NCBI GenBank assembly: GCA_964503955.1
Contig: CAZDCG010000001.1
Span: 382,864-446,863 of the forward strand
Length of the DNA stretch: 64,000 nt
Reading direction: 5' to 3'
From: an uncultured Gammaproteobacteria bacterium
GTDB taxonomy: Bacteria > Patescibacteriota > Patescibacteriia > VMEV01 > CAYQCH01
Part shown: positions 4,171 to 58,001 of the stretch, piece after piece
Layout: each line of letters starts with the position of its first letter
How positions within the stretch are numbered: position 1 is the stretch's first letter
The notes under the pieces: generated by a model
What the model was told of the DNA's origin: nothing
Seen by the model: the letters and a program-made list of their open reading frames with translations, nothing else
Databases searched by the model: none
Program-made: the position numbers and the translations under genes

Positions 4171-5253
4171 ATGTCCTTCTCCATCGGAATTGTCGGTCTT
4201 CCCAATGTAGGCAAATCAACAACCTTTAAAGCGCTTACCCGCAAACAGGTCGACGCAAGCAATTATCCGTTTTGCACGATCGATCCCAATGTCGGCGTGG
4301 TAAAAGTTCCGGACGCGCGCATTGACCAGCTCGCGTCTGTTTATCCGTCGGAAAAAATCCTTCCGACAACGATTGAATTCGTTGATATTGCCGGACTTGT
4401 CAAAGGCGCTTCGCAAGGTGAGGGGCTTGGCAATAAGTTTCTTGAAAATATCCGCGGGGTTGATGCCATCGCGCAGGTTGTCCGCACGTTTGATGATGGG
4501 AATATAATCCATGTTGCCGGGAAAGTGGATCCGGAAAGCGATATCAATACCATCAACCTCGAATTGATCCTCGCGGATCTTTCCCTGGTGGAAAAACGAC
4601 TGAAAAACGCTCAAAGCGCGGCCAAAAACCCCAATGACAAAGAGGCAAAAAAAGAGGCGGAAGCATTTGCCAAACTGTTTGAAGCACTCAATAACAATCA
4701 GTTCGCCTCAACGGTCAGCCTGAATGAAGACGAAACGGAAATCGTGAAATCACTCCGCCTGCTCACCATGAAGCCGATGCTTTATCTGCTGAATGTGGAT
4801 GAAAACGAACTCACAAAGGAAATCACCCGGCCAGCCTGGCTGGCTCAGGACGCGGTTATTGTCCGCATCTGCGCAAAGATCGAATCGGAATTAGCAGAAC
4901 TTTCTCCTGAAGATGCCAAAAGCATGCTTGAGGATTTAGGAATGCGTGAATCGGGTCTTGATCAGCTTATCAAAGCCAGCTACCAGCTGCTCAACCTTGA
5001 AACATTCTTTACCTGCGGCCCCAAAGAAACACGCGCGTGGACAATGGAAAAAGGAACCAAAGCACCTCAAGCGGCAGGAAAGATTCACACCGATTTTGAA
5101 AAAGGCTTCATCCGCGCCGAGGTGATCAACTGGAAAGACTTTGTGGAATACAAAGGCGAATCCGGCGCGCGCGATGCCGGTAAACTCCGCACGGAAGGAA
5201 AAGAATATGTGATGCAAGACGGAGATGTTTGTCACTTCTTGTTTAATGTTTAA
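4171..5253 (+). CDS. ychF: Ribosome-binding ATPase YchF (Obg-like ATPase)
   Basis: P-loop [13 protein letters not shown]-domain motifs and a C-terminal TGS domain. The true start is the ATG at 4171 (MSFSIGIVG), downstream of the 4126 ORF start. Confidence 0.9.
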
Positions 5254-5425
5254 AGGGTTAACGTGTTCACGGGTTAACGAGTTAACGGGTTGATGCGTTG
5301 AGAGTGCAATGTCATCCCGACCTAGCGCAGCAGTCGGAAGAATCTCCTCCTTTCCGGGTACAAGAGCTGTCATCTGTGTGTCTGAACCGTCTGTGATGTC
5401 TGTGCGTCTTAGCGTCTGTGAATCT

Positions 5426-5476
5426 AAAAAGCCGGGAGATATCCCGACTTTTTTGATTCAACTTTCCCGGCTTTTT
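5426..5476. terminator. Bidirectional rho-independent terminator between convergent ychF and the Nudix gene
   Basis: aaaaagccggga...tcccggcttttt is a 12-bp perfect inverted repeat flanked by A-run and T-run. Confidence 0.55.
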
Positions 5477-5478
5477 CA

Positions 5479-5958
5479 TCACATCTTCCCAAACTCCTTA
5501 AATACTTTCTTCAGCACATCGATTTCATCGTCAAACATCACCATCTCGCCGGAGTAATCCATTCCCTTTTCCTGCTTCACTTTGGAATACGGCTTGATGC
5601 TCTTCACTTCATCTTCCCCGACAAGGATAAACTCTGAAACCTCCTGCGTCGGCCTAAGTGTTTCAAGCAGGACATCAGGCATAATGGCGGCATGGTAGAA
5701 GGTATGTTCCCTGGTTGTATCCCCAACCTGCGCTTCGCCAAGATCAATGATATTGGTCAGCCGGTGATAGTCTCCTTTGAGCTCTTCCTGGAATTCCCGC
5801 TTCATGGCCAGTTGTGAAATTTCCCCCGGCTCGATCTGCCCATGCACGCTTGCCTGAAGCAGTCCAGGTTTTTTTTCGAGTCTGCCACGTCGAGAAAGGA
5901 CAACCTTTTTCGCCTCAGGAAGATAGAGGAACAACGTAATGGTTTTGCGATCAGCCAT
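5479..5958 (-). CDS. Nudix hydrolase
   Basis: Nudix box GQIEPGE-x7-REFQEELKG, one residue off the canonical GX5EX7REUXEEXGU. Confidence 0.6.
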   Translation of the reverse strand: MADRKTITLFLYLPEAKKVVLSRRGRLEKKPGLLQASVHGQIEPGEISQLAMKREFQEELKGDYHRLTNIIDLGEAQVGDTTREHTFYHAAIMPDVLLETLRPTQEVSEFILVGEDEVKSIKPYSKVKQEKGMDYSGEMVMFDDEIDVLKKVFKEFGKM

Positions 5959-6033
5959 ATTCGGATTGTTAACGTGTTAACAGGTTAACGCATGAACGCA
6001 TGAATACGCTAACACGCTAACGAGAGTATTATA

Positions 6034-7236
6034 TCATTTTTTCCTTAAAACGAGGATCTCACGTCCCACATGCTGGTTTGCTCGCTTATAATCCACCCCG
6101 CCGCGTTCGCTTGAACTCACGTCTTTTGGCAAGGAAACAACTTCCCACTGCCGCTTCATTGAGCGGGGAATCGGCACGCGTTTTGTTCCAATAAAAGGGA
6201 AAATCATGACAAGCACGCCGTCATTTTTCAATACCCGGTGCATGGCAAGCAGTGCTTTGTCGTACAGGTCAGAAAGCGCATCCTGCCGTTCATTCACTTC
6301 TCCAGGTTGCAGCTTTTTGCGAATGGGTGTTCCAAGATACGGTTCTGTCACAATCAGATCGACGAATGCTTCAGGCAGCCACTCATCCACTTCCATCACA
6401 TCAACCTGTTCAATGGTGGATTGAAATTCATGCCCGCGCTCGCCTCGCAGCCAGTCGAGGTTGCGCCGTGTATCATCGATGGCTTTGTCTGACAAATCGC
6501 TGCCAAGAACTTTTCCCGCACCAAGCAAAACCGCTTCCTGCAGAACCGTCCCCGATCCGCAGAACGGATCAAGCAAAACGGTTTGTTTGCTGATGGGTTT
6601 TCCGGAAAGGTTGATCATCATGCGCGCGAGTTTGGGAGGCAGCATGCCCGAACGGTCGTCTCGGAATGGACGGGCAAAATCACGGTCGGAAAAAGCTTGA
6701 AAATCCTGCACGCCAAGCGTTTTTCCAATCCAGATATGCTCACTCGCCAGCCCGAGCAGAAGCTCAACTCCTTGGCCTGTCAGCAGCTTGTTCTTTTTCA
6801 CCACGACAGACGAAAGCTGCTCCTCTTTGCTTTCCACAACGCGAACAGAGGCACCCTGTTCCTTCAATGATGCGCGGATACCGAATAATCGCTTGCGCAC
6901 GTCCTCCTGGAATAATCCCAGCTGCTTGCCTGAAACCTTGTCGTCAGCTTTGTAAACGCTTGCTCCAAAATAGAATTTTTCTTTGCCGGCGGGCTTTACG
7001 AGTTTTTGCATATGCTTGTCCAGGTCAGATGCGGTTATCTCACGCACGGCGGCGACTTTGATACTTCCGCCAAGCAGGGGGAATAGTTCCGCCAGATCGC
7101 GCTCTGACGCAAAGACCGCCAGATCAGATGAGCGGTCGACTAAATCGGCTTTGATTTCAAATGCGGAAAAAACTCGCAGAATTTCGGCTAGAGACAGCTT
7201 ATCTTCACGGCCGAGAATGAAGGCGAAATGAGACAT
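6034..7236 (-). CDS. THUMP-domain RNA (guanine-N2)-methyltransferase-like protein
   Basis: SAM motif I LDPFCGSGT and motif IV-like TEPYLG. The N-terminal half has a THUMP-like fold. Resembles the Trm11/RlmL class. Confidence 0.65.
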   Translation of the reverse strand: MSHFAFILGREDKLSLAEILRVFSAFEIKADLVDRSSDLAVFASERDLAELFPLLGGSIKVAAVREITASDLDKHMQKLVKPAGKEKFYFGASVYKADDKVSGKQLGLFQEDVRKRLFGIRASLKEQGASVRVVESKEEQLSSVVVKKNKLLTGQGVELLLGLASEHIWIGKTLGVQDFQAFSDRDFARPFRDDRSGMLPPKLARMMINLSGKPISKQTVLLDPFCGSGTVLQEAVLLGAGKVLGSDLSDKAIDDTRRNLDWLRGERGHEFQSTIEQVDVMEVDEWLPEAFVDLIVTEPYLGTPIRKKLQPGEVNERQDALSDLYDKALLAMHRVLKNDGVLVMIFPFIGTKRVPIPRSMKRQWEVVSLPKDVSSSERGGVDYKRANQHVGREILVLRKK

Positions 7237-7618
7237 GTGGCCAACGAAAAAAGAATAATAGCTTCATACTGCCCTAAAATACGATTCCTTGCCAATTTCC
7301 GCTATTTCTGTTAATGTTGAGCAACCGTAAAGGCCCATTTTGCCGCCATTTACGGAGCTATTTACAACATTTATTTCGCTATTCTTCGCCGAAGGCCGTC
7401 CTGCCGGAAGACTAACTAGACGAAACTAGATTAGCCAGACGGGAGATCGAGTCGCTGCATCGAGCCCAAGGTTTTGAAGATTCGGTGCCATGCAAGGAAG
7501 ATTCGAGGATCGAACCGAGGCGTACGAAAAGGTACGCTGAGGAAGAACCGCAGAATCTGACAAAGCAGGGTGCCGAAGATACAAAACCGCTTAGATGCAG
7601 GTGGAATAGACATGCTTT

Positions 7619-9225: not shown

Positions 9226-9795
9226 ATGTTATCGATGAACGAAATCAAGCTCGGAAAAGTTCTTAAATGGGATGGCGACCCGTATGTGGTTATCAAAACC
9301 GAGCATTCCAAAAAGGCGCGCGCCGGCGCCGTGCTCCGCGTCAAGATGAAAAATGTCTTTACCGGATCCGTCATTGAGAACACATTTCAAGGAGCCGACA
9401 AGGCCGAGGAAGCAGATCTTGAACGAGGCAAAAAAGCGCAATACTTGTATAAAGACGATCAGGCGGCGCACTTCATGGATCAGGAAAGCTTTGAACAATT
9501 CGGACTTGACCTTGACCAAATCGAACAGCAGCTCAATTATCTCTCTGAAGGGGAAAATGTCCTCTACATGAGCTATGAAGGCAAGCCGGTTGCGCTGGAC
9601 CTTCCTCCAAAAGTGGATCTTCGCGTAACCGAAGCTCCCGAAGGCGTGAAGGGCGACTCGGCGCAGGGACGCGTGATGAAGCTAGCCACCGTTGAAAGCG
9701 GATATGAACTGCAGGTGCCTCTCTTTATCAAAGAAGGCGACCTCATCCGCATCAATACGGAAACGGGTGAATACGTAGAACGAGTGAAGGAATAA
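9226..9795 (+). CDS. efp: Elongation factor P
   Basis: Full-length three-domain EF-P. The tip-loop sequence is SKKARAGA, with Arg at the position of the usually modified Lys. Confidence 0.9.
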   Translation: MLSMNEIKLGKVLKWDGDPYVVIKTEHSKKARAGAVLRVKMKNVFTGSVIENTFQGADKAEEADLERGKKAQYLYKDDQAAHFMDQESFEQFGLDLDQIEQQLNYLSEGENVLYMSYEGKPVALDLPPKVDLRVTEAPEGVKGDSAQGRVMKLATVESGYELQVPLFIKEGDLIRINTETGEYVERVKE

Positions 9796-9802
9796 AGGAA
9801 AG

Positions 9803-9862
9803 AGCCAGTGCGAGCATATTCAGCAGATTGCTGAGCGCTTGCACTGGTTCTTTTTATTGCAC
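9803..9862 (+). terminator. Rho-independent terminator after efp
   Basis: agccagtgcgagc...gcttgcactggtt stem followed by TCTTTTTATT. Confidence 0.5.
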
Positions 9863-10056
9863 GGACATTGTGGTACACTGAAGTTAGGAGGTATAAAGGA
9901 AGCCTCCCCTTATGAAAAACCCGCTTATCATCTGGACATGATCCTGCTGATAGGTGGGTTTTTCTCTTTTTCAGGAAAAACCGCTCTGGCACGCAGCATG
10001 GGTTTTAGAGCCGTGTTTCCTGAATGTTCTTTCAACCCTCAGAGAAAGGATTGCAC

Positions 10057-10755
10057 ATGGTCCCCCATCCCCATGGGTCCTGGGAGCATGTCAACCCGCG
10101 TGCTCGCAAGATCTTTCGCCGCGGCCAGGAACGGCGCCGGCGCAAGGATCAGAGCGCGGCGCACCGCCTTCGCAAGGGCAAGCATGATGTCCGCTACTCC
10201 TTCGAGATCAGCTCCGAAGACGGACCTCTCTCCTTTCTCTTCGAGGAGATCAGCCGGATCACGCTCCACGCGCTGACCTCGCGCAAGATGATCGACAAGG
10301 TTCGCCGCCGCCAGGCGCGCGATATCCTGCCGCAGACCCTGAAGCTCAGGATCATTCGCCGGCGCACGGAGTCTGGCGCGTACGTGATCATCCCCGGACA
10401 GCAGTACGACGACTTCTGGGTTCCGATCCGTGAGTCGGAGTGCCGGGTGCTTGATGCCTGGCAGTGGGTGATGCGCTATGAGCCCTGGCAGCAGAAGATG
10501 CTGCTGGAGGTGAAGAGCATCTACTCCAACATCAGCCGGGCTCAGCTCGTCTCTCTGATCACTCGCGGCGAAACCCGCTACTACTCGCCGCGCGTGCGGG
10601 TCGTCATCCTCATCGAGGTCGTCGGACAGAGCTTCAATGCTCATCCGCTCAATCCCGTTCCTCTGCCGGACAACGATCCGCAGAACAGCCTGGACGACGG
10701 CCGCCTCGAGATGGACGCCGCACTGGAGAAGATCGGCGCCGAAATCGCGGCCTAA
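10057..10755 (+). CDS. Hypothetical protein encoded in a locally GC-rich segment with a basic N-terminus
   Basis: ORF 10024-10755 with an ATG at 10057. GC and GC3 are far above the surroundings. A GC hairpin lies at 10758-10795. Confidence 0.4.
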   Translation: MVPHPHGSWEHVNPRARKIFRRGQERRRRKDQSAAHRLRKGKHDVRYSFEISSEDGPLSFLFEEISRITLHALTSRKMIDKVRRRQARDILPQTLKLRIIRRRTESGAYVIIPGQQYDDFWVPIRESECRVLDAWQWVMRYEPWQQKMLLEVKSIYSNISRAQLVSLITRGETRYYSPRVRVVILIEVVGQSFNAHPLNPVPLPDNDPQNSLDDGRLEMDAALEKIGAEIAA

Positions 10756-10869
10756 CAGCGCGCCCCCCTTTATTCCTCACGGGATGAAGGGGGGCGTCTG
10801 CATTGAAAAAGAGGAAAACCGGAGCCCTGGAGCCTGACTTTAACATCTCTCTTCAGATAGGTTTAGCAA

Positions 10870-11430
10870 CTACCCATTGACGGAAGACAGACTATAATGA
10901 GCTAAAAACTCGTTTGTGAATTCTTGAATACGTTGTTCAAAGTTCGCTATAGGAATAAGATTACTTGATTTTTTAGTCAGTTTATACGAGGCGTTCGCAC
11001 CTTTTTCCATAGTGACTAAATTCCCCGCTTTTCCCGTAACCACGTCAGCCTTAGACCATACTCCGAAATAGAGTTCGTTTGGAGTTACCCCTAAACACAA
11101 GACAGCATCATATTCTCTATGATAGCGTATATGATTGAACTGAAAATTACCTCCGGTATCTTCTGTTGCTGTCTTAAGTTCATATTTAATACCATAAAGT
11201 TGAATATCCCATGAACTTTGTTTTGCTCTTGAATTGGCCTTATTCAACGGGAAATCACATGGAATTGAAAGCACATTACAAAGGCCCTCAATAAAATCCT
11301 GTCCAACGTTACCGACTTTTGTATTTGAAACAGTTTTGATTCCAATAAAATCACCCTGTTTCCATTTAGGATTGTCAACATTTTTCTTTAATGCCTCTAC
11401 GAACAACTGTTTATAATCAAGATTTTGCAT
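10870..11430 (-). CDS. Putative type II restriction endonuclease (partner of the adjacent MTase)
   Basis: AT-rich ORF overlapping the MTase stop by 14 nt. No other function is recognisable, so the call rests on position only. Confidence 0.45.
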   Translation of the reverse strand: MQNLDYKQLFVEALKKNVDNPKWKQGDFIGIKTVSNTKVGNVGQDFIEGLCNVLSIPCDFPLNKANSRAKQSSWDIQLYGIKYELKTATEDTGGNFQFNHIRYHREYDAVLCLGVTPNELYFGVWSKADVVTGKAGNLVTMEKGANASYKLTKKSSNLIPIANFEQRIQEFTNEFLAHYSLSSVNG

Positions 11431-12355
11431 GTGTTGGAAGATGATCTAGTAAGGCCAACTTGATATGGTACATCGAAATATGACGACAATTATGGGTTGC
11501 AAGATTACTATACTTGTCCCAGTTAATACCACTTAGTATTTTTTTCACTTTTCTTTTTTCTTTTTTTATGATGATTCCATATCCGCAAACATATTTCACT
11601 TTTGAAAAATCACTCACCAGCACGGGCGGTTTGTTGAAATATGTCCTTTGCAAAAAAGTATTGCATTTACTCATCTTTTTCATTCCACAGAGTCGTTCTT
11701 TTCTTAGATCAACTGTAAATAGGTCAATGTACTCATCAGCCAAACTCAAATCCGGTAATGCTGCGGCTTCACCTTTTTTCCAAATCTGCCAAAGCGTATT
11801 CACTTGTTTTGTCTCTCCATTTGGTTGAACGAAAACATCCCCAGAAAGAATTTGAGAATGTACTAACCTCATTCCTAGTACTCTATTTTTGGGACTACCT
11901 TTACCGTCACTCTGAAACGACATAGGGAGAATGAAACCAACATAGTCACAAAATTCTGCTGCACGATTCAAAAAAGCTAAAGCTAGCCACCCGCGATACC
12001 CAAAGGGAGGATTGCCTATAGCTACACAAGGGCGGTTGTCTGTATGATTGGGTTCCCAAGTAAGGAAATCTTGTTGGATGTATTCTCTACAATAATTTTC
12101 AACGTCAATTCCTATACGTTGTTTTTTGGGTAACAGATTGTAAAAAGATCCAGTCCCTGCACTTGGCTCTATAATTTTATAATTGGTTAAAATTGTTCCG
12201 TCCATTTTGAGGTATTTTTGGAATGAATTCCAACAGTACTCCGCGACTTTGGGCAAGGTATTAAATTGATCGAGACCAACTTCCCTTCCACGAACCCAGT
12301 CCGGGATACGATTAGAGCTGGCCCATGCCTTATCTCTAAGTTTGATTGCATTCAT
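11417..12355 (-). CDS. N6-adenine-specific DNA methyltransferase (gamma-class)
   Basis: Motif I EPSAGTGSF precedes motif IV GNPPFG, the order seen in M.TaqI-like gamma-class enzymes. AT-rich, about 38% GC. Confidence 0.8.
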   Translation of the reverse strand: MNAIKLRDKAWASSNRIPDWVRGREVGLDQFNTLPKVAEYCWNSFQKYLKMDGTILTNYKIIEPSAGTGSFYNLLPKKQRIGIDVENYCREYIQQDFLTWEPNHTDNRPCVAIGNPPFGYRGWLALAFLNRAAEFCDYVGFILPMSFQSDGKGSPKNRVLGMRLVHSQILSGDVFVQPNGETKQVNTLWQIWKKGEAAALPDLSLADEYIDLFTVDLRKERLCGMKKMSKCNTFLQRTYFNKPPVLVSDFSKVKYVCGYGIIIKKEKRKVKKILSGINWDKYSNLATHNCRHISMYHIKLALLDHLPTHAKS

Positions 12356-12363
12356 ATTTTGTA

Positions 12364-12699
12364 TTATATCCTGATTTTGGATTTCAGGATAGAGGGCAAT
12401 CTTAATATTACAAACACATCAAATAGGAACCCGAAGACAGCAAACCCAGGGGTGCGTTTAACGGATAAAAATCCGGGGCATCTCAGCTCCGACTTTTGCT
12501 TCTGTTCACTGAAAAGACTCTTCTGAATCTTCTTTTTCCATTTCTGGCATGCCGTTTCCGCTCGAAACTTCTCGAGACAAAGCTCGCATATTATGGCAGA
12601 GTGCTCAGGGTTCGGTGCATCCTGGTGGCCGACACCGAGCTTTTTTCTCTGAACGCTGTTCCTACGCTTGGCGATAATGCCTATGCTGACCGCAACCAA
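12364..12699 (-). pseudogene. Degenerate duplicate of the recA 3' end
   Basis: The translated segment GIIAKRRNSVQRKKLGVGHQDAPNPEHSAIICELCLEKFRAETACQ aligns to the RecA C-terminus [52 protein letters not shown]. Nucleotide similarity is also visible between 12500-12700 and 12780-12960. Confidence 0.6.
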
Positions 12700-12758
12700 G
12701 GGGGGCGGCTTTCTTTAGTAAATTTACTCCCCCGGTCCTGCTTGTTTATGTAGCTGTT

Positions 12759-13850
12759 CTATTCTTCAGATTCGTTCTGTTTCACTGAGGGCTGTGCATT
12801 TTCCGTGCGGAACTTTTCTGCGCAAAGCTCGCGGATTTTGGCGACAAGTTCAGGTTTGTCGCGCAGGTAATCCGTCGCGTTTTGCTTGCCGACTCCAAGC
12901 TTTTCTTCTCCATAACTATAGCTGTTTCCACGCTTGGTAATAATGCCCATGCTGGCGGCAACTTCAAGCAAATCCGCTTCTCTGGCAATTCCCTGATTGT
13001 ACATGATATCAAATTCCGTTGTGCGGAATGGCGGAGCAACTTTGTTTTTGACAATCTTCACCTTTACGCGGTTTCCGATAATCTGCTCGCCCTGCTTAAT
13101 CTGCGCAGACCGGCGGACTTCCACACGGATGGATGAATAGAATTTCAAGGCATTTCCGCCAGTGGTTGTTTCAGGATTGCCAAAAAAGACACCGATTTTC
13201 ATACGGATCTGGTTGATGAAAATCACGGTGCAATTCGATCGGTTGATGATACCCGTCAACTTGCGCAGAGCCTGGCTCATCAGACGAGCTTGAGACCCCA
13301 TTTGCGATTCGCCCATTTCTCCTTCGATTTCGCTTTTAGGAACAAGCGCCGCAACCGAGTCCACCACAATAACATCCACTGCATTTGAGCGCACAAGCGT
13401 ATCAACGATTTCAAGCGCCTGTTCTCCCGTATCGGGCTGGGAGACAAGTAATTCATCAATATTCACGCCAATGCGCCGCGCATATTCAGGATCAAGGGCA
13501 TGCTCGGCATCCACGAAAGCCGCCGTTCCCCCTGTTTTCTGCACTTCAGCCACAATATGCTGGGCCAAGGTCGTTTTTCCTGATGATTCAGGACCGTAGA
13601 TTTCAATAATACGCCCTCGGGGAACACCGCCTACGCCCAGCGCCATATCCAGAGAAAGACATCCCGTGGAAATCGCATCAATATTCAGGCGCTTGGCTTC
13701 TCCAAGTTTCATGATGGAGCCTTCGCCGAATCGCTGCCGGATCTGTTCGATCGCATCCTGCGCAGCCCGCTGCCGCTCCTTCTGGCTTGTTTTTGCTTGT
13801 TTATCATCTGACATACATGGCTGTTTAACGTAAAGATTCTCAAGATTCAT
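12759..13850 (-). CDS. recA: Recombinase RecA
   Basis: Walker [10 protein letters not shown] plus the full RecA core. The start is either 13850 or the ATG at 13814 (MSDDKQ). Confidence 0.9.
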
Positions 13851-41590: not shown

Positions 41591-41625
41591 TTGACAAAAC
41601 TGATCTTTTGTGATATTTTGAAACG
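41591..41625 (+). promoter_or_regulatory. Sigma70-like promoter for the island lipoprotein gene
   Basis: TTGACA, a 17-nt spacer, then TATTTT. AGAGGGGGGG lies 6 nt before the ATG at 41697. Confidence 0.45.
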
Positions 41626-41696
41626 TTAAACAAATACTCACTGTTCTCTCAAGCTTTTCTCATCCAGGTGCTCCACGCACAGAGGGGGGGTTCACC

Positions 41697-43502
41697 ATGT
41701 CGTTTGTCGCCAGCTTCTTTCGGTTCATTTCGCCGGTCCTCGTGGCCGGCATCCTGTCGATCTTCTGTGGGATGATGGTGCTGGGCTGCGCCAAGTCAGG
41801 CGGCCGTTCCGGCGGCGCGCCCATCAGCCCCGGCAACCCGCTCCCCAGCCCCGTGCCCCCGGCGCCGCAGGCGGACGACCACGGCGGCGATGCGGGCTCG
41901 GCTACCATCCTCACCCCCGGCACGGCCGTGACGGGGGAGATCGAGGAGCCGTATGACCGCGACATGTTCGCGGTCTGGGTCCAGGGCGGACAGACGGTGA
42001 CGTTCTCCGCGGATTCCACCAGCTCGATCGAGCTGTGGGTCCAGGAGAACGGGAACTGGACGAACTCCGCCCACGGCACCACGGCCAGCGTGCAGGCCAC
42101 GCCGACCAGCGACGGCTACATCTACTTCTACGTGGAGAACTACTCCTTCACCAACACGCCGGCGTACTCGGTCGTCGCCAGCCTCAGTGGGAACAGCACC
42201 GGCTTCAATGCCCAGGCGCTGCTGGTGAACACGGTCATGGACTGGAACAACCCGTCCAATCCGACCCGTGACACCACCCCCACCGAGCTGCTCGGCGTCT
42301 ACAAGATGGTCGCGCTCATGGACGAGACCGCGCTGCGGTCCTTCGTCCTGAACACGAGCCGGCCTCTGGACTTCGTCACGATCAACGTCTGGAATAACAA
42401 GACCGGACAGTCGGTGTCGAGGACGCTCTACGGTCCCGCCACGCGGTTCGAGTTCCGGGCATCCAGTCTGCTCGAGCTCGGCTACTGCGCCGCGGCTACC
42501 GACGAGCTCGCGATCCAGGTGATCACAGACAGCTCGCAGCTCGACGGCCAGGACGTGACTGCTTCGGTCGAGCGCATCAGCGTCTCGATCGGGAGCGGCA
42601 GCGAGGAGGACATGCTCAACAACCTCCCGCCCGCCGTCACCGTGCGCTACCGCGAACACTCGCGGCTCCAGCACACGGCGATCATGCCCCGCAGGGTCGA
42701 CGAGCGCAGCACCGATACCGTCTTCGCTGAGGTCGAGCTGGCCAATACCAGCGCGATCCACACCGCGAGCGTGTCGGAGATCAACTTCATCGACAACGGC
42801 AACAACACCGGAGTGAGCAACCTGCGCCTGGTCATCGACGGACAGACCGTCAACCTGACCGGCTCGGGCATCATCCGTGCCGACCTGTCGATGAGTCCGG
42901 TCGAGCTGAGCCCGGGCGAGGTCACGAGCTACCGCGTCCTCGCCGATACCATCGCCTCGGTCAACACCAACGTGTGGATCCAGGCGAACGGTGTGTCCAC
43001 CACCGTAGATCATGGCAGCCAAGACCTGACCATCTACGAGGGCGGCGCGCGCGACGCGTACGGCAACTTCGTCTGGTTCGGGGTCGAGTTCAACAAGGTC
43101 CTGACCATGACCCAGCGGGTCATCACCACGACCGGCCCCTTCAACGGACGTGATGTTTTCGCCGCCGACCTCATGTCAAGCGAAGATGTCAACATCCGCG
43201 GCGCCGTCTACACGCTGGTCAGCAACAACGCCCAGCTGGTCGGCGAGGTCCACCTCGTCTTCGACGGAACGAGCAAGGCGTCGACGCAGGAGAACGTCAA
43301 CAAGCTGGTCGAGCTGCCGTTCGGATGGCAGACCACCAGCTTCGAGCTCATCAGTGGCGTCTCCTACTCGTTCAACGTTCCGCTCCACCTGAACACCAAC
43401 CAGTCAGGCGACACCGTCCAGATGGTTCTGCACGCCATCCTGGACGACTGGGGGCGGGCTCACATGGTCCGCCAGACCGGGCCGTCTCACCTCGTGCAGT
43501 AG
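41697..43502 (+). CDS. Surface lipoprotein with a PPC-like (pre-peptidase C-terminal type) domain, encoded in the high-GC island
   Basis: Lipobox VLGC|AKSG and a Pro-rich linker. DHGGDAGSATILTPGTAVTGEIEEPYDRDMFAVWVQGGQTVTF looks PPC-like. High GC3. Confidence 0.55.
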   Translation: MSFVASFFRFISPVLVAGILSIFCGMMVLGCAKSGGRSGGAPISPGNPLPSPVPPAPQADDHGGDAGSATILTPGTAVTGEIEEPYDRDMFAVWVQGGQTVTFSADSTSSIELWVQENGNWTNSAHGTTASVQATPTSDGYIYFYVENYSFTNTPAYSVVASLSGNSTGFNAQALLVNTVMDWNNPSNPTRDTTPTELLGVYKMVALMDETALRSFVLNTSRPLDFVTINVWNNKTGQSVSRTLYGPATRFEFRASSLLELGYCAAATDELAIQVITDSSQLDGQDVTASVERISVSIGSGSEEDMLNNLPPAVTVRYREHSRLQHTAIMPRRVDERSTDTVFAEVELANTSAIHTASVSEINFIDNGNNTGVSNLRLVIDGQTVNLTGSGIIRADLSMSPVELSPGEVTSYRVLADTIASVNTNVWIQANGVSTTVDHGSQDLTIYEGGARDAYGNFVWFGVEFNKVLTMTQRVITTTGPFNGRDVFAADLMSSEDVNIRGAVYTLVSNNAQLVGEVHLVFDGTSKASTQENVNKLVELPFGWQTTSFELISGVSYSFNVPLHLNTNQSGDTVQMVLHAILDDWGRAHMVRQTGPSHLVQ

Positions 43503-43641
43503 ACTCCCGCTGAAACCGGCTCGATAGCCACAAGGTTTCTTCGGTGAACCAAGCACCCCCTTTCGAAAGCTTTACGCGAGTAGAAAGGGGGTCTTGTTGT
43601 TTTAGACCACCTGTTTTGTTCCACAATTTGATGACAGAAGC

Positions 43642-44727
43642 ATGGACAAGAGAATTTTCCATTCATATGGTTACCTATTGCCACGTCGGAGCGTACAAAA
43701 ACAAGCGAGGTGTTCTCTGAGCAAATGCAGGAAGTTTTTCCTGGCTGGCCTATTGTCTGTCATGCTGACGGGCTGCCACGATCACAACCATTCCCACGCG
43801 GCCGAGCGGCTGCTGATCACGGTCGACCGTGCTCCAGTCGCCACCATCCCCGAATCGGCCACTGCCCTGCTCGCGCGCTTTGACGCGACCGCCCTTGAAG
43901 AGCAAATGGCCGTGCACGAGATCCGGGTGCGGACAAGCCTTCCCACCTTCGGCGCGTTCATTACCACCGAGGAGGGGGTCGTGGGAGTCAGCCGGGAAGT
44001 TGATCCGTTCACCCAGTCTGATCCGCAGCAGGTGCGCAAGAATCTCAAGAAGCGCGTTCGCAACCTGCGTATCCTGCCGGTCGACGGGCGGACAGCCCTC
44101 TTTCGCATGGATCAGATCCGTGAAGTCCGTCAATTCAGCCTGTTCTTTAACACGCTTGGGCTCGATGACGAAGTGGTGAATTTTCAAATAACCCATATCG
44201 TCGTTTCATGGCGGGGAAAAGGCCGTGAACGCGACGGTGTGCGCGATTTGCAGTTCACGCTTCTTGTCACCGCGCCGCCCATCGTGCTCGCCGAAGCGAT
44301 CCAGCCGCTGCGCGTGCACGTTTCGCACGGAGCGCAGGAAATCCTTGCTGAAATGACACTCACCGAACTGTCCAATGAACATTCAGTGACGGTGCAGCTG
44401 GTGCAAGCCCGTCTTGATAGTCCATTGCCGACGATTTTCTACCTGACGGATTCGTTCGGGAATGTGCTGAGCCAGGGAATCTTCGACCCTGTTGATCCAA
44501 GAGCAATCTTCTTTGATCTGGGATTGGGAGGAATCTTAAGCATTGCTCCCGGGCAGGCCCGCCGCGTCTTCGTGATCGCGGATCTGACGCCCTTCCCAGG
44601 ACTCGACACACTGACGCTTGAAATCCCTCGCATCATTGTGGAGAACGACAATGGCGAGGTCGATGGCATCGACGGTCCCGTGGATCCGACCACGCGCAAT
44701 CTTGTCCAGTTCGTCAACGTGTTCTAA
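43642..44727 (+). CDS. Lipoprotein, tandem paralog A (C-terminus NLVQFVNVF)
   Basis: Lipobox LTGC. About 50% identity to the following gene over roughly 300 aa. Confidence 0.55.
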   Translation: MDKRIFHSYGYLLPRRSVQKQARCSLSKCRKFFLAGLLSVMLTGCHDHNHSHAAERLLITVDRAPVATIPESATALLARFDATALEEQMAVHEIRVRTSLPTFGAFITTEEGVVGVSREVDPFTQSDPQQVRKNLKKRVRNLRILPVDGRTALFRMDQIREVRQFSLFFNTLGLDDEVVNFQITHIVVSWRGKGRERDGVRDLQFTLLVTAPPIVLAEAIQPLRVHVSHGAQEILAEMTLTELSNEHSVTVQLVQARLDSPLPTIFYLTDSFGNVLSQGIFDPVDPRAIFFDLGLGGILSIAPGQARRVFVIADLTPFPGLDTLTLEIPRIIVENDNGEVDGIDGPVDPTTRNLVQFVNVF

Positions 44728-44899
44728 GACTAAGCCCCGTTCACCCTTTCACGAGGAAGAAGCGGGGCTTGCTGTTTATCGTCCAAAAATGGCGACGTTT
44801 TTCATGGAACAGTTGACGCGATCTCAGGCGAGCTCTAGCATAACTGATTGGCCCGATAACCGGGACAAACCATCAACCTACGATTTTGCGGAGGGATTG

Positions 44900-45928
44900 A
44901 TGCATCGACTCGTCCGTTCCTGGTGGGGTCGACAGCTGAAGCTGGTGCTCGGCTTCCACCTCTTCTTCATAGGCTGCGGGGATGAAAGACGCCATTTCTT
45001 CATCCTCAACGACGTGGTGCTCACCGTTGACCGAGCGCCCGTCGCGACGATCCAAGAAGCTCCTGCGGCACAGCTCGCCCGATTCGACGCGACCGCCCAG
45101 GCAGCCGACATTGTCATCACGCAGATGACCGTGCAGACCTCTCACCCCACGTACGGCGCTTTTATCACGACCAATGACGGCGTGGTAGGCAAGTCCATTC
45201 AGGTTGATCCGTTCACCGTGAACGATCCCGCTCAGTTCCAATTTTCCGTCCGGCAGTCGCTGCTCAACATTCAGCCGACAAATGGAAGGAACGCTCTGCT
45301 GCGGCTTGACCAGATCGGACAGGTCGAGCAAATGTCCTTGTTCTTCAACACGCTCGGCCTGGACGATGAGGTGGTGAATTTCCGCGTCCTCTCGATCACC
45401 GCCTCGAGCGCCTCATCTCCCCCAAAGGAGATCCCGCTTCCCGGGTTGAACTTCACCCTGCTCGTGACGGCCCCGCCTCTTGTCCTGGCTGAAGCCATCC
45501 AGCCGGTGCGCGTGCATGTTGCCCGCGGCGCGAGCGAAGTGCTGGCTGAAGTCGTCCTGACGGAGCTTTCCAACGAGCACAGCGTGGTACTCCAGCTCAT
45601 GGAAGCGCGCTTTGACAAGGCTTTGATCGGACTGAATCCTCGCCTGGTGGACAGTTTCGGCAATATCCTGGGTTTTGGGATCCTGGATCCGGACGATCCG
45701 CGAACGGTTTTTTTCGATCTCTCGACGGGCGGGGCGCTCTCTATCGCTCCCGGGCAGGCCAAGCGTGTCTTTGTGGCCGGAGATATGACGCTCTTTCCAA
45801 GCATCGACACGCTGACGCTTGAAATCCCCACCTTCATCTTCGAGAACGATAACGGAGAAACCGACAGCATCGACGGTCCGGTCGACCCCGCGACCAGGAA
45901 CCTGGTGCAATTCGTCAACGTGTTCTAA
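44900..45928 (+). CDS. Lipoprotein, tandem paralog B
   Basis: Start ATG at 44900 preceded by GGAGGG. Lipobox FFIGC|GDE. The C-terminus is identical to paralog A (RNLVQFVNVF). Confidence 0.55.
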   Translation: MHRLVRSWWGRQLKLVLGFHLFFIGCGDERRHFFILNDVVLTVDRAPVATIQEAPAAQLARFDATAQAADIVITQMTVQTSHPTYGAFITTNDGVVGKSIQVDPFTVNDPAQFQFSVRQSLLNIQPTNGRNALLRLDQIGQVEQMSLFFNTLGLDDEVVNFRVLSITASSASSPPKEIPLPGLNFTLLVTAPPLVLAEAIQPVRVHVARGASEVLAEVVLTELSNEHSVVLQLMEARFDKALIGLNPRLVDSFGNILGFGILDPDDPRTVFFDLSTGGALSIAPGQAKRVFVAGDMTLFPSIDTLTLEIPTFIFENDNGETDSIDGPVDPATRNLVQFVNVF

Positions 45929-46313
45929 CCGGTTCATCCACCGAGAACCCCGCTTTTCCTTCACCGGTCAGGCGGGGTTTTTGCTTCCATCTAGCGTCTA
46001 ATATCTCTATCTACCTCTAAATCTAAACACACTCTCTATCATTAACCTTCTCGATATTTAAGTACCTTTGCAATCTAGTCTCTAATCTTTGTGCCTATAT
46101 CTCTATCTCCATCTCCCCCTCCCAAACAAAAGAGCGCCCTCGCAATCGAGAACGCTCTTCGTGTTTACTTGTTTCTTGATTTTCTATCCTTTCCGAAGCA
46201 TCTGTTTGGATGAGACGCGAGAAAGGATTGAGAAGCGGAGCGATGCGTACCTATCGTACGGTGAGCGAGCATCGAAGATCCTGACGAAGCAGATCGCCAA
46301 ACAGATGCTTCGT

Positions 46314-51479: not shown

Positions 51480-51930
51480 CATGGATAGCAGCACGCCAGA
51501 ACCCCCTCATCATCCTTGTGATTTTATTGTTTTCTCCATCTCCCTTTTCTAGGGGGAAGGACTAGGCACGCAACCATCTTCCCCCCTCTAGAAAAGAGGG
51601 GTCGCGATAAAGATACTAAATGCAAAAACCTTCTTGGGGGAGTTCTTATTAACCCAGAACCCCCTCTTCATCTTTGTGATTTTATAGGTTTTCTCCCCTC
51701 CCCCTTTTCTAGGGGGAAGATTATCCTAATACACGCAACCATCTTCCCCCCCTCTAGAAAAGAGGGGGCGCGATAAAGATACTAAATGCAAAAACCTTCT
51801 TGGGGGAGTTCTTATTAACCCAGAACCCCCTCGCCAGGTTTACGATTTGCCAGGCTTTATCCAGTCCCCCATTTCTAGGGGGAAGAAGAAACATTTATCG
51901 GTTGAGTAGAACATGCTATAATACTGTCGC
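51480..51930. repeat. Tandem array of about 130-bp composite palindromic repeat units, left part
   Basis: About 2.5 copies of the unit acgcaaccatcttcc-cccctctagaaaagagggg-...-cttgggggagttcttattaacccagaaccccctc-...-ccccttttctagggggaag. Confidence 0.8.
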
Positions 51931-51963
51931 TTGCCCACAGCTAATCATTGTGGGCATTTTTTT

Positions 51964-52407
51964 ATGGACCAAGAAATTCGTTTATATGACCTCTACTATC
52001 GTCGCATGAACAATGATGGCAAGCTTGTTTGGTTGGATGAAGCATTTATGCATCGCCTTAAAGAGCTGCGCAAGAATCAGACAGCAGCAGAAAATATCCT
52101 TTGGCAGAAATTAAGAAGAAAGCAGCTTGGCTCTAAATTTTTGCGCCAACACCCTATTAATGGGTACGTAGTCGATTTCTACTCGCGTACTTATAAGCTC
52201 GCAATTGAACTTGACGGTGCTGTTCACCACGATATTGCAGTAAAATTCCGAGACGCGGCAAGGCAAAAAGAGCTTGAGTTCTATGGAGTCCGTTTCCTAC
52301 GATTCACGAACGAAGAAGTTATAAATCAGCTCGATGGTGTCATTGAAAAAATTAAATCGACGATACGCAACCATCTTCTCCCCTCTAGAAAAGAGGGGCA
52401 AAGATAA
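51964..52407 (+). CDS. DUF559-family (Vsr-like PD-(D/E)xK) endonuclease-domain protein embedded in the repeat array
   Basis: YVVDFYSRTYKLAIELDGAVHH...GVRFLRFTNEEV is the DUF559 core. Its 3' end reads into the next repeat unit. Confidence 0.7.
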   Translation: MDQEIRLYDLYYRRMNNDGKLVWLDEAFMHRLKELRKNQTAAENILWQKLRRKQLGSKFLRQHPINGYVVDFYSRTYKLAIELDGAVHHDIAVKFRDAARQKELEFYGVRFLRFTNEEVINQLDGVIEKIKSTIRNHLLPSRKEGQR

Positions 52408-52570
52408 ATGCATCGCGAAAAACGAAACCTTCTTGGGGGAGTTCTTGTTAACCCAGAACCCCCTCGTTACGTTTACGTTTTGCCAAGCTTTATCCAGTCC
52501 CCCTTTTCTAGGGGGAAGGACTATCCTAATGCACGCAACCATCTTCTCCCTGCACATCGTTCAATCCTCA
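52363..52570. repeat. Tandem array of about 130-bp repeat units, right part
   Basis: About 1.3 further copies of the same unit as 51480-51930. Confidence 0.8.
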
Positions 52571-56645: not shown

Positions 56646-58001
56646 CTAGCGCGCCCCGAAATTCTGCACCCAGTACAGTTCAAACCCGCTCTGGCTTTTG
56701 CCATAAGCAAGTCCGAATCCAACCTCGGTGAATTCACCGAGGATATTCGCCAGATGATCCGGGCTGTCAATCCAGGCCTGCATGACTTCTTCAACCGAGA
56801 ATTGTCCTTTGGCGATATTTTCCGCGGAGCGAATGGCTGGATAGCCGGTTGCCGTGATGCGCTCATGCGGTGTCATCCCTTCTGGTGTTTCATGCGCATA
56901 GTACGCGCGGTCGAACATATCCTGCGCATGCGCCTGCGCCGACTGTGTTAACTGGACCTGTAACGTGAGCGGTGCAAGTCCTGATTGCGCGCGGCGGGTA
57001 TTTAATCTGTTAAGCATCTCATTGCGTACCGCGTTCAAATCCGCCAGCGAAGCGGTTTTCTCTGTAAAAAACGATTCAAGCGAACGGGCGAAAACCACAA
57101 AGTAGAAAGAAATATTCTGATACATGCCAATGCCGATTCCAACATTTTCATAATCGGCGTCAACGACATTCTGGTAACTGATATCCTGCTCGGATTTCCA
57201 GACGTCAACGATATTCGTGACCTCATGATTGGTTTGGATCAAATTCTGCGCGACGACGTATGCCACGTATCCGGCTTCTTCAAGACGTTGGGGGATTTCA
57301 ATTCCCTCCGGAGACGTAAAGGAGAAATAGGATCTCTGCGTCATATCATCCGCATGCGTTTGCGCGGCCTGTGACAATTCTTTGATCAATGTATACGGAG
57401 CAAGCCCCTTGCTGGCGCGCTCCAGATTCATTTCATTCAGCAAGGAAATCCGTTTTGTGGTCAGCTCATCTCCAAGCGTGCCTTGCGTCGCATGTCCGTC
57501 GGCGCGATTGCCTCCATTGGAAGGAACCGCCGATTCTTCCGCCACCGGAATGGCAAGCAAATTCTCATCGCTGATGCCAAGACCAAGTTCGCGCATCACC
57601 TTAAACGCGTCGTCCGGTCGTCCAAGATAGGAGCGTTTCAGCGTATCTGGAAAGACATACCAGGCCTCGCCTTTTGATTCCACCTGCAAAAGAATTTTCC
57701 CGCTCAATCGGCTGCGCAAAGAAAGAGAGCCGGTTTGCGAAGAACCGGCTTCAGGGACCAGCGAGAGATCGGCATTGCTGATACCAAGTCCGAGATTGCG
57801 CATAATCGCAAACGCGTCGGCGGGGCGGCCAAGATAGAAGCGCTCATGCGTATCCGGATAGACATACCAGGCTTCTCCATTCGCCTCGACCTGCAATAAG
57901 ATTTTCCCGCTCAAGCGCTGCGCGAGTGTTTGCGCAAAGACAGGCTGATACAAAGACGCGCCAGCCGCGAACAAAAGCGCGGCCAAGATGAATCGTTTCA
58001 T
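56646..58001 (-). CDS. Secreted protein with two CAP (SCP/PR-1-like) domains, each preceded by a conserved ~45-aa repeat
   Basis: Signal peptide. The module SGKILLQVE..GEAWYV.PDT...YLGRP.DAF..MR.LGLGIS occurs twice. The CAP-like C-terminus contains ...ELYWVQNFG. Confidence 0.55.
   Translation of the reverse strand: MKRFILAALLFAAGASLYQPVFAQTLAQRLSGKILLQVEANGEAWYVYPDTHERFYLGRPADAFAIMRNLGLGISNADLSLVPEAGSSQTGSLSLRSRLSGKILLQVESKGEAWYVFPDTLKRSYLGRPDDAFKVMRELGLGISDENLLAIPVAEESAVPSNGGNRADGHATQGTLGDELTTKRISLLNEMNLERASKGLAPYTLIKELSQAAQTHADDMTQRSYFSFTSPEGIEIPQRLEEAGYVAYVVAQNLIQTNHEVTNIVDVWKSEQDISYQNVVDADYENVGIGIGMYQNISFYFVVFARSLESFFTEKTASLADLNAVRNEMLNRLNTRRAQSGLAPLTLQVQLTQSAQAHAQDMFDRAYYAHETPEGMTPHERITATGYPAIRSAENIAKGQFSVEEVMQAWIDSPDHLANILGEFTEVGFGLAYGKSQSGFELYWVQNFGAR

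Follow-up and report, generated by a model that had tools for sequence, protein, structure and literature searches.

The efp-recA gap

The window analyzed here is the whole 64-kb stretch of DNA, which comes from a candidate-phyla-radiation bacterium. It contains an intact recA gene encoding 363 amino acids on the minus strand (positions 12759..13850; Pfam RecA 9.6e-140, together with RecA_C; TIGR02012 2.4e-162), which converges on an efp gene on the plus strand (9226..9795). We identified efp by its synteny with loci L002 and L003 and by the Pfam EFP domains found on the identical gene in L173. The distance between efp and recA is 2,963 bp here, compared with 66 bp in L002, the nearest relative with conserved synteny (RecA 77% identical). 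The gene order in L002 is the same as in the window, with rpsF-ssb-rpsR-efp converging on recA, a gene for an HTH_25 (rodZ-like) protein, and ftsK, and the site that is occupied by a two-gene cassette in the window is short and empty in this relative. Reading from efp, the gap holds a GC-rich ORFan, the AT-rich cassette, approximately 45 bp of further DNA, a possible second copy of the spacer that follows recA, a pseudo-recA tail, and the 62-nt spacer itself. A terminator hairpin for efp was found at 9914-9964 (inverted repeat I1).

The ORFan (232 amino acids, plus strand, 10057..10755, about 61% GC) accounts for what remains of the additional efp-recA DNA. Inverted repeats of 17 nt, complementary at 16/17 positions, enclose it at 9957-9973 and 10804-10820, and a GC-rich hairpin lies behind it at 10761-10796. 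Its family has 11 representatives among 1.84 billion proteins; the C-terminus ends in -AA in 11/12 aligned members and in -VA in one, and the N-terminus is mostly arginine-rich. Neither the protein nor its family profile matched an entry in Pfam, NCBIfam, PHROG, PADLOC or the PDB. As the ORFan and the cassette are opposite in composition and yet lie within one gap, this site has been struck on more than one occasion, and the adjacency of the cassette and the recA remnant therefore proves little by itself.

Elsewhere in the window, a GC-rich block (41600-46000, 55-64% GC) lies beside groEL and contains ORFs of 601, 361 and 436 amino acids that have no Pfam family; two of these three share a paralogous stretch (45446-45928 and 44248-44727, 67% identical). 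The window also contains tandem and dispersed direct repeats of approximately 150-230 nt at 51496-52550 and 57566-57923 (78-86% identity), which presumably lie inside genes for repetitive proteins.

A predicted Type II restriction-modification cassette

The segment at 10870-12355 has a GC content of 37.8%, compared with 50.9% for the window as a whole, in agreement with the initial annotation, which had described it as AT-rich at about 38% against about 50%. A profile in 300-nt steps gave 34-41% GC from about 10900 to 12400, and a composition scan showed this segment to be the only strongly AT-rich kilobase of the 64 kb. It carries two overlapping ORFs on the minus strand. The first, which we call M, encodes a putative gamma-class N6-adenine DNA methyltransferase of 312 amino acids (11417..12355), and the second, which we call R, encodes a putative PD-(D/E)xK Type II restriction endonuclease of 186 amino acids (10870..11430) and overlaps M by 14 nt.

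In M, motif I lies at residues 63-71, NPPF lies at 115-118 and the recognition domain is C-terminal, which is the order seen in the gamma class. In a structural alignment, approximately 190 C-terminal residues of M align with the recognition domains of TaqI, BseCI and CamA (219-243 residues aligned). The class had been proposed earlier from the position of motif I ahead of motif IV, and both the motif order and these alignments uphold it. M thus carries an AdoMet motif I and a catalytic (D/N)PP(Y/F) motif IV, R carries a nuclease catalytic core (PD..ExK) and is encoded beside M, and both proteins match Type II models in PADLOC; searches of Pfam and NCBIfam gave no model that covers M or R. On these features we predict that M and R form a functional Type II restriction-modification (RM) system, in which M would methylate adenine within a target sequence and R would cut the same sequence when it is unmethylated. 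A search for palindrome avoidance across the 64-kb window gave no signal and no candidate for the target site.

The cassette probably has its own TATAAT promoter, and the 14-nt overlap may couple the translation of R to that of M. Its leader (minus strand, 12356..12391) is where DNA homology among copies of the cassette begins. An 8-bp inverted repeat, TATCCTGA-N9-TCAGGATA (12391-12367), overlaps the TATAAT box of M (12368-12363), and the leader hairpin at 12363-12391 folds with a z score of -2.9. The same combination of TATAAT and inverted repeat precedes M in L082 and L084, and the repeat may act as an operator or form a hairpin that insulates M. On the recA side, we found no significant hairpin or terminator in the 62-nt spacer that follows the recA stop codon (z 0.12); with no convincing terminator between recA and M, read-through from recA into M and R may be possible.

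Distribution and mobility of the cassette

Homologues of the two proteins are numerous, with about 1,100-1,170 or more found for M and about 900 or more for R. The best 120 of each shared 65-85% identity with M or R of the window and were all free of Pfam domains. The few family members that are named belong to Patescibacteria and to one other candidate lineage. We found the M-R pair in at least 10 different neighbourhoods. A close type of R follows M in six contexts (L001, L082/L083, L166, L167, L168 and L179), a variant of R that is approximately 41% identical follows M in two (L084 and L165), and in L169 such a variant (also approximately 41% identical) is divergent from M. An R homologue adjoins M in 9/9 loci outside the window. 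This co-inheritance, along with the nuclease core and the 14-nt overlap, fits the initial proposal that the overlapping downstream ORF is the cognate endonuclease.

Several copies lie on mobile DNA. The copy in L168 has the context of a conjugative element, beside a relaxase gene and type IV secretion genes. In L179, which is a phage contig (IMG/VR UViG_3300028436_000005), the cassette (5247-7459) lies between the portal and large-terminase genes, directly after a gene for an IS1595-family DDE transposase in the same orientation; this transposase is a possible vehicle of spread. More distant M-R pairs were found on approximately 19 viral contigs. On plasmids, named relatives of M were limited to distant hypothetical proteins and R had none.

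The GC content of the cassette, measured at seven loci, was 32-43%, and at six of these the flanks had 47-60%; the seventh host, L166, itself has 34%. Copies resemble one another at the nucleotide level (72-76%) only over the M and R genes, from approximately 36 bp upstream of M to approximately 50 bp before the stop codon of R, and the upstream end of this homology lies approximately 115 nt from the recA remnant. The C-termini of R vary from copy to copy and their extensions are highly variable (10870-10933 in the window; alignment A1), and it seems to be within the last part of R that the cassette has its distal recombination boundary. Taken as a whole, M and R are a small, bare and frequently transferred foreign Type II cassette that is clearly mobile. 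The earlier suggestion of a mobile island thus holds for the M-R pair, which occurs in at least 10 contexts, is AT-rich in most hosts and shares homology only over its genes. We did not find the cassette at any other recA locus among the 164 recA loci compared.

A decayed copy of the recA 3' end

Between the cassette and recA lies a fragment on the minus strand (12506..12699) that corresponds to recA nt ~884-1092, or residues ~296-363. When we compared the spurious 111-amino-acid ORF at 12364-12699 with RecA by BLASTP, it matched residues 297-352 at 54% identity (E 8e-12). At the nucleotide level, blastn gave 77% identity over 75 nt (E 6e-10) together with a second block; when 12967-12763 and 12699-12519 were aligned locally as DNA, the score was 135, compared with 29.8±5.5 for 300 shuffles. 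The RecA-like similarity of this ORF, which the initial annotation had noted in the translation of 12364-12699, is therefore significant in formal alignment; the part derived from recA is approximately 194 nt long (12699-12506) and does not extend over the whole 336-nt ORF. Judged from these alignments, the fragment is a true pseudo-copy of the recA 3' end, a dead copy of its last ~205 nt. It has decayed through either two in-frame deletions or several small indels, plus one frameshift, and its stop codon is in a shifted frame (12508-12506), just as the earlier description of it as diverged and out of frame with recA would have it. The acidic tail and stop codon of the pseudo-recA (MPEMEKEDSEESFQ*) are still readable in the shifted frame.

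The two recA tails form a direct tandem with a period of 266 bp, separated by the 62-nt spacer that lies 3' of the recA stop (minus strand, 12697..12758); seen from recA, the cassette lies beyond both of them. A 42-nt direct repeat between the tails (D1) is 83% identical at a spacing of 266. The spacer ends in CTTG, which it has in common with recA nt ~884-887, so that the junction shows a microhomology of 3-4 nt (TTG/CTTG) between the end of the spacer and recA nt ~884, short enough to have arisen by chance. The pseudo-recA tail is followed by a possible second copy of the spacer (minus strand, 12436..12505); the two stretches are colinear in a global alignment (60 nt compared with 62 nt), and their similarity is weak, with a local alignment score of 25 that was reached by 11 of 1000 shuffles.

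The contig from which the window comes is metagenome-assembled, the runs of the source samples (SRR11843815-35) being short-read, and two strain alleles of the recA tail could in principle have been concatenated during assembly. We consider this scarcely credible. The junction between recA and the remnant recurs without a single difference in four contigs (L170-L172 and L178), each assembled independently from a run of its own, and this recurrence argues that it is no assembly artefact; strain alleles, moreover, do not differ in the way the two copies do, with only 68-77% identity and numerous indels.

Classical site-specific integration (attL/attR), or insertion of the RM genes with a long target duplication, would be another way to leave a second recA tail, and long target duplications are known for RM units elsewhere (PMC2853133). 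We searched for the signatures of such events and found no integrase, recombinase or transposase among the ORFs between efp and recA, no tRNA or known RNA at the site, and no flanking repeats around the cassette. Both tails lie on the recA side, and a search beyond R and near efp (9796-10900) gave no third tail (z < 2). Integration of either kind is very improbable here, and the proposal that an island had integrated into the 3' end of recA finds no support, as the tails do not flank the cassette, there is no third copy and there is no recombinase gene.

Comparison with other recA loci

We compared the remnant with other recA loci. No comparable duplicate of the recA tail was present in 155 other recA loci, the nearest case being a 20-nt match in L045, so the duplicate is no ancestral feature of wide distribution. 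In a comparison with 164 recA loci, the remnant DNA matched only the resident recA, which places its source in the same or a very close lineage. The closest relatives compared were either members of the same population (99.9-100% identical) or had a RecA that was 77% identical. Look-ups with exact protein sequences returned close contigs that were all 99.9-100% identical, from the same population, and carried the same remnant; aside from this population, RecA scans for a relative with an empty site yielded nothing closer than 77% in genome contigs and 72% in metagenome contigs. The initial annotation had allowed that the fragment might be ancestral if relatives carried it without RM genes. No relative does so, in a sample that is without close relatives. 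With such a sample, adjacency is what ties the scar to the cassette. At 8 other sites of the M-R cassette we found no duplication longer than 26 nt, so a scar is no regular by-product of the insertion of this cassette.

Origin of the recA scar

The best reading of the remnant is that microhomology-mediated illegitimate recombination left it as a scar. We slightly favor an account, to which we would give somewhat less than an even chance, in which the cassette arrived from a close relative by one-sided, homology-facilitated illegitimate integration. Here, a 1.5-kb two-gene Type II RM cassette would have been gained horizontally into a short convergent intergenic region between efp and recA. The donor would have been a closely related lineage that already carried the recA tail, the spacer, M and R on one segment. 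Homology on the efp side would have served as the anchor of this segment, and a single illegitimate joint at CTTG would have linked it to the resident DNA 62 nt after the stop codon of recA. The donor recA tail would have been useless from the start and would have decayed since, and the 3' spacer was probably copied too. What the data show directly is what the cassette is and that it moves, that the fragment is homologous to recA, that the tails stand in tandem and that a relative has a short empty site; the sequence of events, the identity of the donor and any connection of the scar with the cassette's arrival are inferred.

The main competitor, which we hold to be a real possibility if a somewhat doubtful one, is that a short and imperfect microhomology allowed slipped or unequal recombination, which duplicated in tandem, in situ, a 266-bp unit reaching from recA nt ~884 through the spacer. 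The redundant downstream copy would then have decayed, and the cassette would have come separately, earlier or later, ending up adjacent since the intergenic region is tiny. Such a duplication accounts well for the perfectly tandem geometry with its 266-bp period, for a remnant that resembles the resident recA only among 164 loci, and for the lack of duplications at other cassette sites. It would also explain why the second tail is followed by a colinear 60-nt stretch that weakly resembles the 62-nt spacer, though this weak similarity fits the donor-segment account as well.

The divergence between the two tails points in both directions. In a DNA-guided alignment (81% identity in ungapped columns, approximately 12 small indels), mismatches at codon positions 1-3 were 10/58, 6/61 and 17/57, near the expectation for one neutral and one selected copy; an in-situ duplicate that decayed neutrally would explain these counts just as well, which speaks against the donor-segment account. 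A protein-guided codon alignment gave pS 0.57, pN 0.23 and a dN/dS of 0.26 over 49 codons, values that depend on the alignment. A value of ~0.5 would be expected had one of the copies evolved neutrally ever since an in-situ duplication. The lower dN/dS weakly counts against such a duplication and hints that the divergence was partly between functional alleles in separate lineages.

Two further points weigh against duplication in situ. Identical tandem repeats of 266 bp are unstable in a RecA-proficient cell and must be fixed before they diverge, whereas a copy that was already diverged would presumably be stable against RecA-mediated collapse. The sole duplicate of this kind, with none comparable in the 155 other recA loci, also adjoins foreign DNA. 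It is on the instability of a perfect 266-bp tandem and on this association with foreign DNA that we lean towards an imported copy.

The direction of transfer could also be reversed, such that the remnant is the original resident tail, with the cassette already downstream, and recA itself was replaced. An incoming allele with 62 nt of its 3' flank would have had its homology anchor upstream and its illegitimate joint at nt ~884 of the old recA. This explains the same junction, microhomology and divergence data as one-sided integration from a donor does, and the frameshift before the acidic tail of the remnant would make the exchange of a damaged recA advantageous. We nevertheless found no sign of a foreign recA or a foreign upstream flank, the upstream synteny and composition being unremarkable, and the 62-nt spacer is unmatched in any relative. 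We consider replacement of recA improbable, and continue to prefer integration of a donor segment beside the resident gene.

Neighbouring SOS and recombination genes

recA is not the only gene of its kind beside which the cassette was found. The cassette lies directly downstream of lexA in two genomes (L082, 5261-7450; L165, 3970-7763), in L165 between lexA and a gene for a Y-family polymerase (dinB). It lies beside uvrA in L169 (4443-8992) and after recJ-comEC in L166 (782-6459). With recA here included, 4-5 of 10 cassette contexts are beside SOS or recombination genes, compared with a chance expectation of approximately 7% that is itself a rough estimate; the count is post hoc and the sample small, and the proportion is suggestive.

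Boxes of the alphaproteobacterial LexA type (GTTC-N7-GTTC) were found at the lexA promoter in L082 (5182) and L165 (3805) and upstream of recA in L003 (5851). The 64-kb window contains neither GTTC-N7-GTTC nor Gram-positive-type GAAC-N4-GTTC boxes, and the leader of its recA has only a degenerate GTTC-N6-GTTT. We considered membership of the cassette in the LexA (SOS) regulon and rejected it, given that no LexA box is present in the window.

It is conceivable, though we think it unlikely, that the M-R family lodges preferentially beside SOS and recombination genes in Patescibacteria. Such genes might serve as conserved homology anchors when DNA passes between diverged lineages, in which case the pseudo-recA tail would be a direct scar of this process, or restriction might be coupled to the SOS response through a damage-induced operon. 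This recurrent adjacency is the sole aspect of the locus that could become interesting.

Significance and comparison with known systems

What lies beside recA is no new kind of element. It consists of an ordinary Type II RM cassette, gained horizontally, and a recombination scar next to it, both of known kinds and of modest interest. The cassette is compact, with more than 1,100 homologues of M in public metagenomes, and is found in several named Patescibacteria and also on phage. M-R cassettes are likely to impede gene flow and, in future, attempts to manipulate these organisms genetically. The window offers a clean example, in which the cassette occupies, without mobility genes, a convergent intergenic region that is 66 bp long in the relative L002. 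As for the recA-tail scar, it is of modest curiosity value and could be used to date or trace the acquisition only once closer relatives have been sequenced.

The cassette resembles Type II (IIP-like) RM systems with methyltransferases such as M.TaqI, M.BseCI and CamA. M shares their motif I, NPPF and C-terminal recognition domain and aligns with them structurally over its full length, R is small with a PD..ExK core, and the two genes are adjacent, overlapping and co-inherited. Unlike known Type II systems with a gamma-class methyltransferase, the M-R family shows an unusual degree of uniformity (65-85% identity for the 120 best homologues of M and of R).

Homology-facilitated illegitimate recombination during natural transformation is known from Acinetobacter and Streptococcus pneumoniae, and usually deletes recipient DNA, leaving no partial duplicate. 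The locus is similar in having foreign DNA beside a highly conserved gene and no mobility enzymes, and perhaps in a single joint at a possible microhomology of 3-4 nt; it differs from the usual outcome in that a partial duplicate has been left in place of a deletion in the recipient.

RM units have also been described that insert with target duplications of 30-420 bp, often overlapping the 3' end of a neighbouring gene (PMC2853133). Like these long-target-duplication units, reported in 2010, the cassette is bare, has no mobility gene, is lower in GC than its host and lies beside a duplicated gene 3' end. In those units the repeats flank the RM genes, whereas the recA tails here are one-sided, tandem and heavily diverged.
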